A stretch of 62,388 nt of DNA, counting the filler, from Coriobacteriales bacterium (GTDB lineage Bacteria; Actinomycetota; Coriobacteriia; Coriobacteriales; UBA8131): the NCBI GenBank assembly GCA_031263105.1. It is 5 parts of 5 records of this genome, joined end to end, with 100 filler letters (N's around TTAATTAATTAA, not from the genome) between each part and the next. Parts side by side here need not be neighbours in the genome. Positions count along the whole stretch, not along the records: positions 1 to 8,698 come from JAISGJ010000020.1; 4 more parts are not named here. The stretch is one strand, 5' to 3'. Below, in pieces: positions 3,534 through 11,528 of this stretch. A program made the translations under genes and the position numbers. The notes under the pieces were generated by a model. It was not told the DNA's origin and ran no database searches. It was given only the letters and a program-made list of their open reading frames with translations. Position 1 is the first letter of the stretch. Every line of letters starts with the position of its first letter.

Positions 3534-6071
3534 CTACCGCGCCCTCTTCCAGTGCGCGTAGAGCGTGACCGCCTTCGTGACCCTCGTGGCGGAGTTCACC
3601 TTCGTGCCGCCGGACTTGGCGGTGTACCAGCCGAGGAAGGTGTAGCCGGTGCGCTTGGGGGTCGAGAGCTTGCCGAGCCTCGTGTTATAACTCTTCTTTA
3701 GGGAGGTTGCCGTCGCTTTCCCGACCTTGCCGCCGTTGGCGTTGAGCTTCACCGTGTACGTCTTGGCCTTCCAGTGGGCGTAGCAGGTGACGTTCCTCGT
3801 CACCGCCGTCCTGGCCGTGACCTTGGTGCCCTTGGCCTTGCCGGTGTACCAGCCGAGGAAGTCGTAGCCGGTGCGCACGGGCTTGGCGAGGGTGCCGACC
3901 GCCGCGCCCTTCTTCTTCACCACTGAGGCGGTCGCCGTCTTGCCCACCTTGCCGCCGTTGGCGTTCAGCGTCACGACGGGGCCGTTGGCCTTCCAGTGCG
4001 CATAGTAGGTAAGGTTCCTCGTGACCTTCGCGGTCGCCTTCGGCTGCATGCCGCCCGCCTTGCCCGTGAACCAGCCTTGGAAGGTGTAGCCGGTGCGCAC
4101 GGGCTTGGCCGCGAGCCTCCCGAGCGCCTGGCCGTAGGTCTTCTTGAAGGACGCCGCCTTGGCGGCGAGCCTCCCGCCGCTAGCGTCGAGCTTCACGGTG
4201 TAGGTGTTCGCCCTGTACTTCGCGGTGACGGTGAGGTCGGAGGTCACGCTGCCGAACGCCCTGTCCCAGCCCGTGAAGGTGTGTCCTGCGCGACCGGATG
4301 CCTTGGGCGCGGTCGCCGCCGTGCCGTGGGCGACGCCCTTCCGCTGCGCGAGCACTCTGCCGTCGAAGCCCTTGAAGGTGACGGTGTAGGTGTTGGCCCT
4401 CCACTGCGCGTAGTAGGTCACGCCGCCGGAGACGACGGTGGAGGCCGTTACCCGTGCGCCGCCGGAGGGAGCCGTGAACCAGCCGAGGAAGGCGTGGCCT
4501 GTGCGCACGGGCACGGACAGCGCGCCCACGGCGGAGCCCGCCGCCACGGCGCGGCCCGCGACCGTACTGCCGCCCCGGCTGTCGAAGGCCACAGCGCAGG
4601 GGGCGGGGGCGTCCTGCGGGAGGATCGAAGAGTCGCCGAAGCGGGCCACGAGCACGCGACGGGCGGCAGAGTCCGGGATGCGGTTGTAGGCGCAAGCGAG
4701 CCAGGAGAGCTTGGGGTTCGCTCCGGCGCTCACGTCAAGCGCCGTGAGCCTGTTGTTGGAGCAGGAAAGCCAGGCGAGCTGGGCGTTCTTGCTCACGTCC
4801 AACGCGGCAAGGAGGTTGCCTGCGCAGTTCAGGCGCTCCAGCTTTGCGTTCGCGCCCACGCTGAGCGAGGAGAGCCTGTTGCCGGAGCAGTCCAGCTCCT
4901 CCAGCGCGGCGCTCCCGCCCACATCGAGGGACTCGAGCAGGTTGTCCGAGCAGTCCAGCCTCACCAGCCCGGTGCTCTTGCTCACGTCGAGCTCCGTGAG
5001 GCCGTCGTAGAAGCAGGACAGGCTCCTCAGCGCGGCACCGCACGCCGACACGTCCAGCGAGGAGAGGTTCACGCCGTTCAGCTCGACGGAGACCACGGGC
5101 CGCCCGCCGAGCGTCGCGGGGACGGAGACGGCGCCGGACGCGCCCCTGTAGCCTGTGACGTAGGCCCCGTCCCCGTAGGCAGCGCCCGCCTCCCCTGCGG
5201 CCCGAACGCTGTAGAGGAGGCCTGCCTCAACCTGCCCCCAGAAAACTTCGCCCTCATGGTCACCATCCCATTCGCTATCCCAGCCGCTGGGCTTGGACGA
5301 TGCCTTGCAATAGATGGTGGCCGTGCAGTATTGAAACGCACCGAAAATGACCGAGGACACAGAGGAAGGGATGAAAATGGAGGAAAGGGAGCGACATCCG
5401 TTGAACGCCTCTTGCGCAATCCTGTTCACAGACGAAGGGATGCTGTAGTTCACTGCGGGGCTGCCCATTGGATACTGGAGAAGTTCCGTCTTGCCGTTAT
5501 CGAAGAGGGCGCCCTGACCGTCCGTCGAGTAATACGCATTGTCGTCGTCAACAACGATGGAGACGAGGGAGGTGCAGCCACCGAAGACAAAATCCCCAAT
5601 CCAGTACACGGACGAAGGGATGGTGACGGATTTGAGGGACGTGCAGGAGCGGAATGCCTCCGACTGAATCGATTGCACACCCACAGAAATGTCGACGGAG
5701 GAGAGAGAGCCGTAACCCGCGAACGCACGACCTCCGACAGAGGTCACGCCCCCAGTGATGACAACATGAGTTATCGCATCACCGTAGCTGCCCCAAGGGC
5801 GTGCAGCATAGTTGTACACCCCCATCGCACCGCTGCCGGTAATCGTGAGGGTGCCGTCCCCGTCGAGCGACCAGGTGACGCTCCCTTCGCTGCCATCCGC
5901 CCCGCAGTTGCCGCTGGCGATTACCTCCTGCGGAGCCACGCCAGCCGCCGCGTCGCCGCTATCTTCCCCTTCTGCCCCGTAGGCCGGGGCGAGGCCGCCG
6001 AGCGAGAGGGCGAGAACGGCCGCCAAGAGGACGGCGAGGGCCTTGCGGAAGGTCGTTCGTGTGTGTGCCAT
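3534..6071 (-). CDS. Secreted surface protein with BspA-type LRRs, internalin-like LRRs and about five InlB B-repeats
   Basis: Signal peptide RKALAVLLAAVLALSLGG; IPSSV..I...AF repeats; LDCSxNxLxxLDV repeats; RTGYTFLGWYT...YAHW repeats; GGGGAG RBS before ATG 6071. Confidence 0.9.
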   Translation of the reverse strand: MAHTRTTFRKALAVLLAAVLALSLGGLAPAYGAEGEDSGDAAAGVAPQEVIASGNCGADGSEGSVTWSLDGDGTLTITGSGAMGVYNYAARPWGSYGDAITHVVITGGVTSVGGRAFAGYGSLSSVDISVGVQSIQSEAFRSCTSLKSVTIPSSVYWIGDFVFGGCTSLVSIVVDDDNAYYSTDGQGALFDNGKTELLQYPMGSPAVNYSIPSSVNRIAQEAFNGCRSLSSIFIPSSVSSVIFGAFQYCTATIYCKASSKPSGWDSEWDGDHEGEVFWGQVEAGLLYSVRAAGEAGAAYGDGAYVTGYRGASGAVSVPATLGGRPVVSVELNGVNLSSLDVSACGAALRSLSCFYDGLTELDVSKSTGLVRLDCSDNLLESLDVGGSAALEELDCSGNRLSSLSVGANAKLERLNCAGNLLAALDVSKNAQLAWLSCSNNRLTALDVSAGANPKLSWLACAYNRIPDSAARRVLVARFGDSSILPQDAPAPCAVAFDSRGGSTVAGRAVAAGSAVGALSVPVRTGHAFLGWFTAPSGGARVTASTVVSGGVTYYAQWRANTYTVTFKGFDGRVLAQRKGVAHGTAATAPKASGRAGHTFTGWDRAFGSVTSDLTVTAKYRANTYTVKLDASGGRLAAKAASFKKTYGQALGRLAAKPVRTGYTFQGWFTGKAGGMQPKATAKVTRNLTYYAHWKANGPVVTLNANGGKVGKTATASVVKKKGAAVGTLAKPVRTGYDFLGWYTGKAKGTKVTARTAVTRNVTCYAHWKAKTYTVKLNANGGKVGKATATSLKKSYNTRLGKLSTPKRTGYTFLGWYTAKSGGTKVNSATRVTKAVTLYAHWKRAR

Positions 6072-6158
6072 GGCTGACTCCCCTTCTGTCTGAGCCCCCC
6101 TGACGGGGCTTCCCTGCGGGCACAGGGCGCTCCCTGGCCCCCCAAAAATCAAAACCCC

Positions 6159-6444: not shown

Positions 6445-6520
6445 GGTCGGGTAGCTCAGTTGGTAGAGCAGGGGACTGAAAATCCCCGTGCCGGCGGTTC
6501 AAGTCCGTCTCCGACCACCA
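6445..6520 (+). tRNA. tRNA-Phe (GAA)
   Basis: 76-nt cloverleaf: acceptor GGTCGGG/TCCGACC, anticodon loop CTGAAAA, T loop TTCAAGT, encoded CCA. Confidence 0.97.
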
Positions 6521-6613: not shown

Positions 6614-6802
6614 ATGTCGAAGGTATGTGCAATCTGTGGCAAGCACCCCGTGGCGGGACGCAACGTCAGCCACTCGCACCGTGTGACCAACCGCGTGTAC
6701 CGCCCCAACGTGCAGAAGGTGACCATCAACCAAGACGGCCACGTGAAGCGCGCCAACGTCTGCACCAAATGCCTCAAGGCAGGCAAGGCCCTACGCGCTT
6801 AG
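6614..6802 (+). CDS. rpmB: 50S ribosomal protein L28
   Basis: [10 protein letters not shown]...GRNVSHSH...PNVQ...[14 protein letters not shown]. Confidence 0.97.
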
Positions 6803-6965: not shown

Positions 6966-7697
6966 TCAGCCCTCGAGCACGACCAAGGCCGTGCCCTGGT
7001 GGGCTTCGATATGCACATCCTCGCCAACCACAACATTAGAGACGCCCCGTGACCCGTTGAGGGGCAGACGTGCATGCTCGAGCTCCCATTCCACGCCGCT
7101 GATAGAGACCGTCACGTCCCCTCCCCAGGGGATGAGGGAGATAAAACGGGGAGGGGGCACGGCGGCGAAATCGAGGTGAAGCCGACAGCCTGTCTTCGCG
7201 CTCAAGAACACGCAGCACTCGTCCTCCTCGGCGATGACGACCCTCGTTCCTGCCTCGGCGGCGGCGGCAAGGCAGGCGAGCGCCGCGAGGCCATGGTCGA
7301 TGCGCCCGCCGAGCACCTTGGTCGCAACGACGGCAACAAAGCCACGCGACCTCAGCTCCTTGAGCGCAAGCTCGAAGTCGGTCGCATCCTTGTGGGCATC
7401 GAAGCTCATGACCTCGGCCCCTGCGGCCTCAAGCGCCGCGAGGGTGTCGCCCCCTATGGAGTCGAAGTCGCCGATCAGGAGCTGGGGCACAAGGCCTGCG
7501 GACCGCAGGTCCTCTCCCCCTGAATCGACGGCCACGACGAAGCCTGCCTCCTGCGCCAGCCCCAGGACAAGCCCGGGAGCGGCGCACCGAGGCGACCCGG
7601 CGACCACCAAGGCGCACTGCGCGTGCGGCACAAGGCCGACGAGCTGCCGCACCAAGGAAGCGCCGACTGCTGGCCCGTGCGCCAGATAGGGAGTCAT
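6966..7697 (-). CDS. thiN: Thiamine diphosphokinase
   Basis: AVDSG, IGDFDS, KDATD, GGRIDH and GVSN motifs; follows thiT. Confidence 0.92.
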   Translation of the reverse strand: MTPYLAHGPAVGASLVRQLVGLVPHAQCALVVAGSPRCAAPGLVLGLAQEAGFVVAVDSGGEDLRSAGLVPQLLIGDFDSIGGDTLAALEAAGAEVMSFDAHKDATDFELALKELRSRGFVAVVATKVLGGRIDHGLAALACLAAAAEAGTRVVIAEEDECCVFLSAKTGCRLHLDFAAVPPPRFISLIPWGGDVTVSISGVEWELEHARLPLNGSRGVSNVVVGEDVHIEAHQGTALVVLEG

Positions 7698-7718
7698 CTT
7701 ATTCCTCCCAAAGGATGC

Positions 7719-8381
7719 TCACGACGCAGATGCCGCTTCGAAGCGCCGCGCGGGCACCGCCTTGGCGAGCACGGGGATGACGATGAGGGCGCAGACGAGT
7801 GCGCCGGCAACCGAGGGGACGATATAGAGCAGGTTGTAGATAAGGGAGTATATCCAGACGTTCAGGCCGACGTCGGCAGGGCCGGCCTGCAGCATGCCGG
7901 GGTACTCCGCGAAGAAGTCGGCAGCGTACTCCGAGAAGAAGAAGACGCCGGAGACCACGTGGGAGACCAGCCGCAGGACGCCGCCGACCAGCACCGCAGC
8001 GACGACGGTGGCGGAACTGCCCGCGACGAAGCCGCCGGTCACGCGGCGTCCGTCGCGCTCCGCAGCCTTGCGGTAGATGCCCGAGAACAGCCCCGCACCG
8101 AGGCCGAAGAGCAGGTAGGGGGCGGGATAGTCGAGGATCACCTGCAACGGGAACAGGACGAACGGCTCAAGGAGCAAATCGATGCTGCCGAACAGCGCAC
8201 CCGCGACCGCCCCGGCCACCGGGCCGCGACGCAGCGCCACGACCGCGATGGGGAGCATGCACAGGTTGACGGAGCCGCCTGCGATGTTGAACGGCAGACG
8301 GATTTGGATGAAATTGAGCACGACGGCAAGTGCCACCGCCAGCGCCACCTCCACCAGAACCAGAACCCTCGTGTTGCGCAT
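7719..8381 (-). CDS. thiT: ECF transporter S component, thiamine-specific
   Basis: GGSVNLCMLPI, QVILDY, SHVVSGVFFFSEYA and WIYSLIYN motifs; RBS before ATG 8381. Confidence 0.92.
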   Translation of the reverse strand: MRNTRVLVLVEVALAVALAVVLNFIQIRLPFNIAGGSVNLCMLPIAVVALRRGPVAGAVAGALFGSIDLLLEPFVLFPLQVILDYPAPYLLFGLGAGLFSGIYRKAAERDGRRVTGGFVAGSSATVVAAVLVGGVLRLVSHVVSGVFFFSEYAADFFAEYPGMLQAGPADVGLNVWIYSLIYNLLYIVPSVAGALVCALIVIPVLAKAVPARRFEAASAS

Positions 8382-8446
8382 GGTCTTCCTTCCTTTTTGG
8401 GGAGAGCCACCACAGCCTGACGAGGTCGCGGAGCAAGTGGGGTGAG

Positions 8447-8540
8447 CACTTCCGCTTTGGCGCCCCGCATTACCGGAACGCTCCTCTCGGTCGCGAACGA
8501 ATCGCCTCTCAGCCATAAAGACAGCTCCCGATGGGATATG
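8447..8540 (-). ncRNA. TPP-like riboswitch (variant P4/P5 arm)
   Basis: Minus strand CGGGAGC...GCTGAGAGG...GACCG...CCGGTAATGCGG...GGAAGTG upstream of thiT; extended -10 TGcTATCAT at 8569-8577. Confidence 0.75.
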
Positions 8541-8698
8541 ACGCGCGCCTGCAGAACGCGCAGGGACAATGATAGCACAAGCCAGCGGAGCGGAGCGGAG
8601 CGAGCTGGGGGGGGGGGGGGGGGGGGGTAACCAACTGTTTAGTTAATTGGGTGAAACCCCCCCATTAATTGACAGGGCACCCCGGGTAGACATGGGAC

Positions 8699-8798
8699 NN
8701 NNNNNNNNNNNNNNNNNNNNNNNNNNNNNNNNNNNNNNNNNNTTAATTAATTAANNNNNNNNNNNNNNNNNNNNNNNNNNNNNNNNNNNNNNNNNNNN
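8699..8798. other. Artificial contig spacer
   Basis: 44 N + TTAATTAATTAA + 44 N. Confidence 0.99.
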
Positions 8799-9060
8799 CA
8801 GCCCACTGCCGCCCCGAGCGCGGGGCCGCCCCCGCAGCCCACTGCCACCCCGAGCGCGGGGCCGCCCCCGCCGTCCACTGCCACCCCGAGCGCAAAGGGC
8901 AACGCCCCCGCACCCCACTGCCACCCCGAGCGCGGGGCCGCCCCTCGCAGCCCACTGCCGCCCCGAGCGCGGGGCCGCCCCCGCAGCCCACTGTCATCCC
9001 GAGCGGAGGGGGGCGAAGCCCCCCGCAGCCGAGGGATCCTTGGCCGCGAAGCGGCCAACC
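8799..9060. repeat. Tandem ~36-bp degenerate repeats of the REP left end, followed by a partial REP element
   Basis: Five units of GCAGCCCACTGCCRCCCCGAGCGCGGGGCCGCCCC lead into CACTGTCATCCCGAGC...CCGAGGGATC. Confidence 0.85.
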
Positions 9061-9216
9061 CATGCCAAGAGCCCGCGCAGCGGGCGACACACTGCGGGCG
9101 ACACACTGTTTCGGCTGTTTGGCTGGAGTCAATGTATGCTACTATGGTGGGGTTATTTTTCGCTTCCCTTAGGGGTGGAGTTCGGTCAGAAGGAAGAGAC
9201 GGTGAGGTAGAGTATC

Positions 9217-9843
9217 ATGGCAGATGAGCAGATTGCTGCAGGTTGGTATCCCGACCCCGCAGGGGATACCACGAGAATCCGTTATTGGGACGGCCAGGCG
9301 TGGACCGAGCAGACCCAGCCTGCGGTGAATCCCGATCTGGCGAGCAGCGGCGCGGGCGCTCCGGCAGGCGCTCCGGCGGCCCCGGCGGCCCCTGTGGGCA
9401 CCCCGGCGGCCCCAACAACTCCCGTAGCCCCGGCAGGCGCAACGCAGGGCGCCCCTGCCCCTGTGTTCTCTGCGGAGCCGCAGCCGATCTATGCGCAGGG
9501 ACAAGGTGCTGCTCCCTATGCCGCAGTCGAGCAGGGCAAGGACCGCAAGGGCTTCGCCGTTGCCAGCCTCGTGCTGGGAATCTTCTCCCTTCCGTGCGCC
9601 TGCTTTGCCTATTTCGCCTTTTTTCCCGGGATCCTTGCGGTCATCTTCGGCATCCTTGGCATGAAAAGCTCCCGGAGGGGAATGGCGATTGCCGGCCTTA
9701 TCATGGGCATCGTGGGCATCATCGGAGGAATCGCCATGACCGTGCTTGTGTTTGTCACGATGCCGGATGTGCTGCAGGACATCATGCGGAACCCCACCGA
9801 GTACGGCCTGCCCTCCGACGCGTTCTCCGGGTACGACTTCTAA
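9217..9843 (+). CDS. DUF2510/DUF4190-like membrane protein
   Basis: AGWYPDP...RYWDGQAWT, a Pro/Ala linker, then ASLVLGI...GMAIAGLIMG transmembrane segments. Confidence 0.85.
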   Translation: MADEQIAAGWYPDPAGDTTRIRYWDGQAWTEQTQPAVNPDLASSGAGAPAGAPAAPAAPVGTPAAPTTPVAPAGATQGAPAPVFSAEPQPIYAQGQGAAPYAAVEQGKDRKGFAVASLVLGIFSLPCACFAYFAFFPGILAVIFGILGMKSSRRGMAIAGLIMGIVGIIGGIAMTVLVFVTMPDVLQDIMRNPTEYGLPSDAFSGYDF

Positions 9844-9912
9844 GAAAGCACACGTAGGCCACAACTGCCAGACACGCGGGCATCAGTCGCATTGGCTACT
9901 GTTCACTCCCCC

Positions 9913-10041
9913 CACTGTCATCCCGAGCCCCGCCGAGGAATCTTTGGACACGCAGTGTCCAACGGCAGGTCGGGGGCCCCTCGACCTGCGGTCGACCGCT
10001 GGCGCGGTCGAGGATTCCTCGGCAGGCTCGGAATGACAGTG
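9913..10041. repeat. REPIN/MITE-like palindromic element
   Basis: CACTGTCATCCCGAGC...GCTCGGAATGACAGTG termini with internal hairpins shared with other copies. Confidence 0.9.
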
Positions 10042-10187
10042 GGGTGTCCGTGGAGGGTGTGACCAGTAACCCGCAGTAACCCGCGTTGTGCCTGGCGACA
10101 CACGTCTGCTTGCGCGTGCGCTCAAAGGGCGGGCAAGTACGGTACAATACTGTTTCCGTTACCCATCCCTGCGCAAAAGGAAGCACC

Positions 10188-11528
10188 ATGGCATTCCAGG
10201 CACCACGCGGCACCACCGACCTGCTCCCGCCGCAGGCGCATGCGCTCGACCGCATCCAGCGCATCGCCTGCTCGGTGTTCGGCCTCTACGGCTACGGGCT
10301 CATCGAGACCCCCGCCTTCGAGCAACTCGACGTCTTCGTCCGGGGCATCGGCCAGGACACCGACGTCGTGGGCAAGGAGATGTTCCATGTGCTCTCGCCC
10401 GGCGCACTCGCGAAGCAGGCCGAGGGCGCACCGCTCAGGCCCGACGACGTCCTCGCCCTGCGGCCCGAGCAGACGGCCTCCGTCGCCCGCGCCGCCGTGC
10501 AGCACGGCCTCGTGCCCCCTGACGGTGCGACGGTCAAGCTCTGGTACCGGGGCACGATGTTTCGGGCGGAACGCCCTCAGAAGGGCCGCCTGCGCGAGTT
10601 CCACCAGGTCGGCGCCGAGTGCCTGGGAGCGGCGGGTCCCTCCGCCGATGCCGAGGCCGTCGTCATGCTCATGCACTTCTTCGAGGAATGCGGCATCCCG
10701 CGCGGCGCCCTGCGCCTCCTCCTCAACTCGATGGGCGATGCGGCCTGCCGCCCTGCCTACCGCAGCCAGGTGCGCGCCTTCATCCTCGACCATGCGGCGG
10801 ATCTCTGCCCCGAATGCGTGCGCCGCGCCGACACGAACCCCCTGCGAGCCTTCGACTGCAAGAACGAGGGATGCCGACAGGTGCTTGCGGACGCCCCCCG
10901 CATCACCGACCTGCTCTGCGACGACTGCGCGGCGCACTATGCCTCCGTCAAGGCCCTCCTCGATGCCGCACGGGTCCCCTACGAGGAGGACCCCCGTCTC
11001 GTGCGCGGCCTCGACTACTACACGCGCACGGTGTTCGAGGTGCAGGCCGACGCCGGCCTCGGTTCGCAGAACGCCTTGGGCGGCGGGGGGCGCTACGACG
11101 GGCTCATACAGGAGTTCGGCGGCAGGCCGACCCCCGGCCTGGGCTTCGCCGTCGGCCTGGAGCGCGTCCAGCTCGTCTTGGAGGCGACGGGCAATGCCCC
11201 TGACGCCCGTCCGGTGCCTGCGGCCTACCTTGCGGCGGTCGACGAGGACGCGCGGCCGGTCGTGTTCGCCCTGGCGCAGGAGCTGCGCGCCGCAGGCCTG
11301 GCGGCCGAGCTCGACCACCAGGGCCGCTCGCTGAAGTCGCAGTTCAAGCAGGCGGACAGGAGCGGGGCGCCCGTGGTGCTCGTCGTCGGCCCCGACGAGA
11401 GGGCGGCCGGCGCAGCGAGGATGCGCCACATGGGCACCCACGAGGAGCGCACCGTCGCCCTCGATGCCGTCGTCGATGCGGTCAAGGGAGAATGCACAGC
11501 GACACAGGAAGGCGACCAGGACAGATGA
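10188..11528 (+). CDS. hisS: Histidine--tRNA ligase
   Basis: PRGTTD, LRPE, FRAERPQKGRLREFHQ, LVRGLDYY and GGGRYD motifs. Confidence 0.97.
   Translation: MAFQAPRGTTDLLPPQAHALDRIQRIACSVFGLYGYGLIETPAFEQLDVFVRGIGQDTDVVGKEMFHVLSPGALAKQAEGAPLRPDDVLALRPEQTASVARAAVQHGLVPPDGATVKLWYRGTMFRAERPQKGRLREFHQVGAECLGAAGPSADAEAVVMLMHFFEECGIPRGALRLLLNSMGDAACRPAYRSQVRAFILDHAADLCPECVRRADTNPLRAFDCKNEGCRQVLADAPRITDLLCDDCAAHYASVKALLDAARVPYEEDPRLVRGLDYYTRTVFEVQADAGLGSQNALGGGGRYDGLIQEFGGRPTPGLGFAVGLERVQLVLEATGNAPDARPVPAAYLAAVDEDARPVVFALAQELRAAGLAAELDHQGRSLKSQFKQADRSGAPVVLVVGPDERAAGAARMRHMGTHEERTVALDAVVDAVKGECTATQEGDQDR

Follow-up and report, generated by a model that had tools for sequence, protein, structure and literature searches.

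A TPP-type riboswitch variant without the P4/P5 internal loop upstream of thiT in a Coriobacteriales genome

Analysis of a 62,388-nucleotide stretch of DNA from a Coriobacteriales bacterium (GCA_031263105.1), which we refer to as the window, revealed a TPP-type aptamer upstream of thiT from which the internal loop of the P4/P5 arm was absent. Judged by sequence, this aptamer genuinely belongs to a conserved sub-type of the TPP lineage in which that loop is deleted. We consider it probable that it is a functional cis-regulatory riboswitch of the THI-box lineage which senses the pool of thiamine, TMP and TPP and acts as a translational OFF switch.

The aptamer and its P4/P5 arm

The first-pass annotation had placed a TPP-like aptamer ahead of thiT and thiN. 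This was borne out, as all of the motifs it named were present on the minus strand and Pfam matches confirmed both genes (Table 1). The aptamer was 64 nt upstream of thiT, which was followed by thiN, encoding thiamin pyrophosphokinase (TPK). Alignment with the Rfam TPP model (RF00059) was end to end, but its score of 25.5 bits fell short of the 54.3 set as the gathering cut-off; the E-value was 0.047 for the 3.5 kb searched and 0.0093 genome-wide. This was the only TPP-like match to RF00059 in the assembled genome, which is 86% complete, and an Rfam E-value search of 7000–10500 returned nothing besides TPP.

The alignment showed an intact pyrimidine pocket, with P2, P3, J3/2 CUGAGA and the ACC on the 3′ strand of P2 all retained, in agreement with the earlier description of this half as canonical. 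Following the P3 hairpin, the 5′ to 3′ order was GCUGAGAGG, the P3a hairpin, CGACCG, GAGGA, GCGUUCCG-GUAAUG-CGGGGCGC and the tail CAAAGCGGAAGUGC.

Table 1. Features of the aptamer, the leader and the downstream genes, in window positions
Feature	Position	Strand	Basis
Putative promoter, -10-like box TGcTATCAT (extended -10 type)	8569..8577	minus	sequence reading
5′ hairpin "P0", GCGCG-UUCUGCAGG-CGCGC, directly before aptamer	8543..8561	minus	RNAfold, -10.8 kcal/mol
Variant TPP-type aptamer, whole	8446..8541	minus	RF00059, 25.5 bits, model 1-105
Proposed P1 5′ strand, CAUAUCC	8534..8540	minus	by eye
Pyrimidine-sensor half, 5′ part: P2 5′ strand (U)CGG, GA, P3 hairpin GC-UGUCUUUAUG-GC, J3/2 UGAGA	8505..8531	minus	RF00059 consensus alignment
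CGGGAGC motif	8530-8524	minus	sequence reading
GCUGAGAGG motif	8513-8505	minus	sequence reading
P3a hairpin (GCGA/UCGC) and P2 3′ strand GACCGA	8487..8505	minus	covariation in A1 and A2
CGACCG motif	8493-8488	minus	sequence reading
J2/4 junction GAGGA, 5 nt, the length of canonical UuGAA	8482..8486	minus	cmscan alignment
P4/P5 arm, uninterrupted 8-bp helix GCGUUCCG/CGGGGCGC capped by L5 GUAAUG	8460..8481	minus	alignment and fold
Arm 5′ strand GCGUUCCG	8481-8474	minus	sequence reading
L5 GUAAUG	8473-8468	minus	sequence reading
Arm 3′ strand CGGGGCGC	8467-8460	minus	sequence reading
Proposed P1 3′ strand, GGAAGUG, overlapping hairpin 8455-8428	8447..8453	minus	by eye
Hairpin just 3′ of aptamer, GCGGA-AGUG...CACU-UGC-UCCGC, competing with P1	8428..8455	minus	MFE folds
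Pyrimidine-rich segment GGCUCUCCCC, putative anti-aptamer/anti-SD	8399..8408	minus	MFE of full leader pairs it with aptamer GGGAGC
Shine-Dalgarno-like GGAAGGAAG, 3 nt before AUG 8381-8379	8385..8393	minus	sequence
thiT, ECF S component for thiamine, 220 aa	7719..8381	minus	Pfam PF09515, E 2.4e-32
thiN, thiamin pyrophosphokinase, 243 aa, 21 nt after thiT	6966..7697	minus	PF04263, E 2.1e-22; PF04265, E 9.3e-11

The same alignment deleted precisely two J4/5 and two J5/4 positions (consensus CCUg-AU-ccGG...CCgg-CG-uAGG). The 5′ strand of the arm before L5 was 8 nt, compared to 4+2+4 in the canonical form. The window arm paired as G-C, C-G, G-C, U.G, U.G, C-G, C-G and G-C, with two tandem U.G pairs, and this 8-bp helix was present in every minimum-free-energy fold. 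The continuous helix without a J4/5–J5/4 loop that had been proposed was confirmed by the RF00059 deletions together with this helix, and L5 GUAAUG was retained as described. The Infernal comparison suggested at that stage, with four loop positions deleted, was not that of a normal TPP aptamer. The arm had also been called rewritten; it does depart from the canonical arm, but it was found to be shortened instead, only the 2+2 loop nucleotides having gone, with P4 stacking directly on P5. As aligned, it is the canonical arm minus its internal loop, two layers shorter, and not a different structure.

The proposed P1 strands paired, by eye, at six of seven positions in the window, and the register was not consistent among relatives, in which other registers were used or the Shine-Dalgarno sequence (SD) sat in the 3′ strand; in several members (L158, L162 and L170) the 3′ strand of P1 was the SD itself. 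At the position of the hairpin that follows the aptamer, relatives carried, by eye, stems GCGG/CCGC, ACGG/CCGU and AGCG/CGCU (AGCG-GAAA-CGCU). A hairpin at the P0 position, of different sequence and with an energy of -7 kcal/mol or better, was found in 13 of 22 thiT leaders of the family. P0 may be a 5′-end stabiliser or part of the switch.

Several other features lay nearby. From 8605 onward a run of ~24 G gave way to AT-rich sequence, with which the contig ended at 8698; Ns around the ttaattaattaa linker then extended to 8798 and mark the join of two contigs. The next contig started with a GC-rich tandem repeat (8799-9005; 36 nt, 5.6 copies, 86% matches) and encoded a 208-aa protein with DUF2510 and DUF4190 domains (9217-9843, plus strand). 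Beyond thiN were a tRNA-Phe (6445-6520, plus), a 62-aa zinc-ribbon-like ORF (6614-6802, plus) that we presume to resemble ribosomal protein L28, and an 872-aa ORF with repeated ...GYTFxGW... units, similar to a cell-surface repeat protein (3534-6152, minus).

Conservation, covariation and distribution

Sixteen variant sequences were aligned (A1) and a covariance model, R1, was built from this alignment. R1 gave the window 75.7 bits, the window sequence being among those from which it was built. A second alignment (A2) of 79 rows, comprising 72 plain variants, five canonical controls and two sequences with insertions (L171 and L172), was fitted to R1; it leans towards the model, but the arm in it is ungapped and anchored by an invariant loop. 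CGGGAG, GCUGAGAGG and CGACCG were invariant in A1, partly by construction of the search pattern.

Seven of the eight pairs of the arm helix changed on both sides, and 90.6% of cells were paired in A1 and 90.8% in A2. The covariation check that the first-pass annotation had recommended yielded compensatory changes in the arm. The P2, P3 and P3a pairs were 95–100% paired in both alignments, with double-sided changes in P3a at three of four pairs in A1 and at all four in A2. Across the whole structure 93.3% of cells paired in A1 compared to 74.2% in shuffles, none of 500 shuffles reaching the observed value, and when partners were slid out of register pairing fell to 22–40%. The fold energy was no better than that of shuffled sequences (z +1.19 for the full leader and z -0.30 for the aptamer alone), and so the case for more than chance rests on the RF00059 alignment, on the aptamer lying 64 nt ahead of thiT and on the conservation with covariation in relatives. 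A one-off decayed copy, which the first-pass annotation had named as the outcome that would count against it, was excluded by this conservation and covariation in relatives.

The run of pairs next to L5 separated the two forms. Among 74 variant loci it was 7–8 in 63, six in six and 3–4 in four (two wrong loop picks by the script, one G.G mismatch and one bulge), with one not parsed. Among 32 canonical loci the run was 3–4 in 29, three of which were wrong loop picks, and six in one, with two not parsed. L5 was invariant among the variants, last G included, save for G or A at the first position. The outermost arm pair was unpaired in 42 of 77 distinct rows, and the arm helix is therefore mostly 7 bp. 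The fourth and fifth pairs from the loop were U.G in 32 and 29 of the 77 rows respectively and Watson-Crick in most others, so there were no loop-like conserved nucleotides where the pocket used to be. Two family sequences (L171:1500-1640 and L172:1500-1690) had the same loop-less arm with insertions of 35 nt and 85 nt, respectively, in J2/4, between CGACCG and the arm; because of these insertions they scored low with R1 and were misaligned.

A search of 61 related genomes with RF00059 returned two groups, 22 matches at 49.9–75.1 bits and 10 at 16.8–29 bits. The loop-less arm was present in six of the low group, including the window, and L230 later brought this to seven. Low matches in L023 and L024 fell in coding sequence, appeared chance-like and were dropped, and a partial match in G019 (23.2 bits) adjoined Ns. 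Using R1, the loop-less form was found in 22 of 34 family genomes, compared to 7 of 33 with RF00059 at E ≤ 1. When 151 genomes were sampled from the order, R1 gave 59 matches of at least 46.5 bits, which were distributed over 58 genomes and 9 of 13 families. The next match below this score (42.0 bits) was canonical on inspection, and families f3, f6, f12 and f13 gave canonical-level R1 scores only. When 20 diverse variant loci were compared with the Rfam cut-off, none reached 54.3 bits; 14 scored 21.5–39.2 bits and six had no match at E ≤ 10.

An even, phylum-wide sample of 151 genomes, which contained only 10 genomes of the same order, gave matches in 46 genomes at E ≤ 1e-6. No loop-less arm was present in the best 29 of the matches outside the window's own genome, and the form is therefore not general in this sample and looks lineage-restricted. 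In two sequences of the phylum sample (L191 and L193) only the 5′ strand of the loop was missing (CCUG-UAAG GUAAUG CUUG-CG-UAGG), leaving a one-sided loop; this arm is an intermediate between the canonical and loop-less forms. Species genomes were also scanned with a pattern of the three conserved motifs in which the arm was unconstrained, which yielded at least 120 loci and is not a census. Among the matches listed there were 109 canonical-type arms, 10 loop-less arms and one chance match. The loop-less loci among them were in MAGs labelled Nanopelagicales, Planktophila, Actinomycetota, Actinomycetales, Bifidobacterium, Coriobacteriaceae and Rhodospirillaceae.

Downstream genes and the leader

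Genes were assigned as the longest same-strand ORF starting no more than 300–400 nt from the aptamer and scanned against Pfam. The 64 variant loci of the order preceded ThiT (26), ThiD (20), ThiM (13), a CytX-like permease (2) and ThiC (1, L244), with two unassigned; a thiamine gene was thus downstream at 62 of 64 loci, which is every assignable one, although these counts are not independent events as many of the genomes are close kin. The 10 variant loci listed by the pattern scan preceded PnuC-family genes in eight cases and ThiD in one, with one unassigned. At the 32 canonical loci of the order the genes were ThiC (12), an ABC permease (BPD_transp_1; 7), ThiM (3), CytX-like (3), none (3) and single cases of ThiD, YkoF, ABC_cobalt and Thiamine_BP; at several of these the chosen ORF starts 250–390 nt downstream and may not be the first gene.

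Both forms occurred together in eight genomes of the order. Six of these, from one genus (G040, G051, G085, G091, G097 and G158), had the variant before thiD and the canonical aptamer before thiC. G077 had the variant before thiD and the canonical form before a cytX-like gene, and G043 the variant before thiT and the canonical form before an unassigned ORF. In the window's own genome, 86% complete, RF00059 detected the variant form alone. That assembly also gave no match to the ThiC, ThiE, ThiD or ThiM families. With thiT and TPK present, this suggests a thiamine auxotroph, which would take up the vitamin and pyrophosphorylate it.

Although tied to salvage and uptake genes, the variant is not confined to them, and it has no particular association with operons that combine uptake and TPK. 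The first-pass annotation had argued that the altered arm would suit an operon for uptake and pyrophosphorylation; this argument is weakened because thiD, thiM, cytX-like genes and, once, thiC also follow the same variant.

The putative promoter has counterparts in relatives, in which TGnTA...T boxes were seen by eye at matching distance; a strict two-hexamer sigma-70 promoter scan of 8300–8700 gave no hits. There were also no terminator-like sites in 8300–8700, and thus none between the aptamer and thiT. The window leader has the layout of its relatives, shortened, with GGCUCUCCCC followed by GGAAGGAAG. The relatives' counterpart of GGCUCUCCCC is ACAGCUCUCUCU, which is complementary both to GAGCUGU in the 5′ half of the aptamer and to the SD AGAGAGG. 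In family relatives ACAGCUCUCUCU paired with the aptamer in free folds and with the SD once the aptamer was enforced. Enforcing the aptamer clearly lowered the mean unpaired probability of the SD in 4 of the 12 leaders tested (L165, 0.44 to 0.28; L168, 0.44 to 0.29; L169, 0.47 to 0.38; L157, 0.33 to 0.16), with a small change or none in the others. In the window leader, computed SD accessibility was unchanged (0.56 vs 0.55), so the thermodynamic folds do not reveal the workings of its expression platform; the complementarity of anti-SD and SD was weak (CUCUCC vs GGAAGG, with one C.A and one U.G).

By analogy with the family relatives, rather than from the window leader, we infer a translational OFF switch for thiT. 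Ligand binding would fix the 5′ half of the aptamer and so free segment 8408-8399, which would otherwise be paired with aptamer GGGAGC. The freed segment would then cover the SD at 8393-8385, turning off translation of thiT and, with it, that of thiN.

The ligand and relation to described riboswitches

The canonical TPP riboswitch (RF00059; E. coli thiM and thiC) shares with the variant the three-way junction, the P2–P3 sensor, J3/2 CUGAGA, the ACC, the optional P3a, a 5-nt J2/4, a second arm capped by (A/G)UAAUG and a location in leaders of thiamine genes. It differs in having the 2+2-nt P4/P5 loop (CCUG-AU...CG-UAGG), which the variant, scoring far below the Rfam cut-off, does not have. The J4/5–J5/4 loop binds Mg-pyrophosphate, and specific Mg and base contacts are known from the crystal structures of 2006. 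Guedich et al. (2016) locate the pyrophosphate at the P4/P5 junction and report that thiamine sits in the pyrimidine pocket but does not touch the pyrophosphate pocket, which is disordered in that state. Lang et al. (2007) describe L5–P3 stacking, with A69 on C24, and place U62, U79 and G72 next to the pyrophosphate site.

McCown et al. (2017; RNA 23:995, PMC5473149) state, citing Roth et al. (in prep.), that TPP riboswitch variants with changes in the P4–P5 pyrophosphate core sense thiamin approximately as well as TMP and TPP. Their statement accords with the suggestion in the first-pass annotation that the RNA may sense free thiamine, TMP or a precursor. As briefly described there, these variants resemble the window element in having the defect in the P4–P5 pyrophosphate-binding core with the rest canonical, and they can co-occur with canonical aptamers, as in the eight genomes of the order. 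The kind was thus already known from those sentences of McCown et al. (2017). Compared by its brief printed description only, their collection likely includes the loop-deleted form; the print consists of a few sentences and a figure legend and gives no sequences, architecture or gene associations. A literature search found no detailed or later description of these variants; their consensus may be given in the supplementary files of McCown et al. (2017). The same laboratory later published two reviews, and a term search of these gave no passage on the variants.

By analogy with those variants, the discrimination between thiamine, TMP and TPP has likely been lost in the loop-less form. With the canonical Mg-pyrophosphate pocket excised, P4 and P5 would form a single 7–8-bp helix still capped by the docking loop L5. 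The ligand would be held through its aminopyrimidine ring, and pyrophosphate would no longer add affinity, so that the response would be to summed thiamine, TMP and TPP and not to TPP alone. Against the combined reading of relaxed ligand range and OFF switch stand the one variant locus before thiC (L244), the unchanged SD accessibility in the window leader, the fold energies close to those of shuffles and the inconsistent P1 register.

The main rival to this lost discrimination is that the variant is still TPP-selective, the pyrophosphate being read in some other way, such as by a hydrated Mg2+ bound to the tandem U.G pairs or by one near the retained G72 of L5, such that geometry and not specificity has changed. 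Tandem G.U pairs can bind metal ions, and the U.G pairs at the fourth and fifth positions recur in the proportions given above, window included. L5 is invariant including its last G, and Lang et al. (2007) place G72 close to the pyrophosphate site. TPP would also be a physiologically meaningful end product for an auxotroph with only thiT and TPK. Yet the wobbles are not conserved, as thiM-type and pnuC-type members are Watson-Crick there, the canonical pocket nucleotides are simply missing, and the brief statement of McCown et al. (2017) points to lost discrimination. We regard continued TPP selectivity as a minority possibility, well short of even.

Two further readings are unlikely. A sensor of a pyrimidine precursor (HMP, HMP-P or HMP-PP) in place of thiamine would fit the pyrimidine pocket being the sole ligand site kept, and 22 of the 64 variant loci of the order are before thiD or cytX-like HMP-salvage genes. 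It is nevertheless improbable, given that 26 of these loci are before thiT and 13 before the thiazole kinase gene thiM, that eight of the 10 loci outside the order, among the matches listed, are before PnuC-family (PnuT-like) transporters of intact thiamine, and that the window's own genome (86% complete) had no thiD or thiE match for using HMP. Conservation of the arm and L5 would also hardly be needed by a ring-only sensor. A TPP riboswitch in decay and no longer functional is very improbable indeed: the sub-threshold Rfam score and a fold energy close to that of shuffles are what it would predict, but 58 of the 151 genomes sampled from the order retain the form, every helix shows compensatory changes, and a thiamine gene follows at all assignable loci.

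The thiamine pathway has a second riboswitch, the HMP-PP riboswitch (thiS motif), whose ligand is not TPP and which can adjoin TPP riboswitches (Atilho et al. 2019, eLife 8:e45210). It is an unrelated, tiny aptamer embedded in a terminator; the window has the full THI-box fold and no terminator. This identity was rejected, as 8300–8700 contained no terminator-like site and the Rfam search returned only TPP.

Kang et al. (2017, Sci Rep 7:42252) used Rfam to find a THI element ahead of pnuC-like (PnuT) genes in acI Actinobacteria and report it with no remark on its arm; the Nanopelagicales and Planktophila members found here are loop-less and precede PnuC-family genes. As far as the literature search shows, the explicit architecture with its clean 2+2 deletion is new, as are the dominance of the form in the order, its presence before pnuC-type genes in lake Actinomycetota, and the occurrence, in single genomes, of variant leaders for thiD alongside canonical ones for thiC.

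Preferring, as above, a sensor of the thiamine, TMP and TPP pool, we tentatively suggest, at somewhat below even confidence, that the loop-less form makes up a ligand class of its own, a sensor of "thiamin vitamers" which recognises only the aminopyrimidine-thiazolium part, and that it is the main B1 regulator of the order and of freshwater acI-type Actinomycetota. Cells with both forms might then split their regulon, with thiT, pnuT, thiD, thiM and cytX responding to any thiamine species and de novo thiC to TPP alone through the canonical aptamer.

Since Rfam-based annotation misses the form (0 of 20 loci), this actinobacterial branch from guts and lakes has under-annotated thiamine regulons, and riboswitch-based predictions of B1 auxotrophy and uptake will miss thiT, pnuT, thiD and thiM leaders. 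R1 and the 74 loci provide a ready set for biochemistry. If the relaxed specificity reported by McCown et al. (2017) holds true here, the form would be a clean natural case in which ligand range was changed by deleting one recognition module, and in which canonical and trimmed sensors divide a pathway within one cell.
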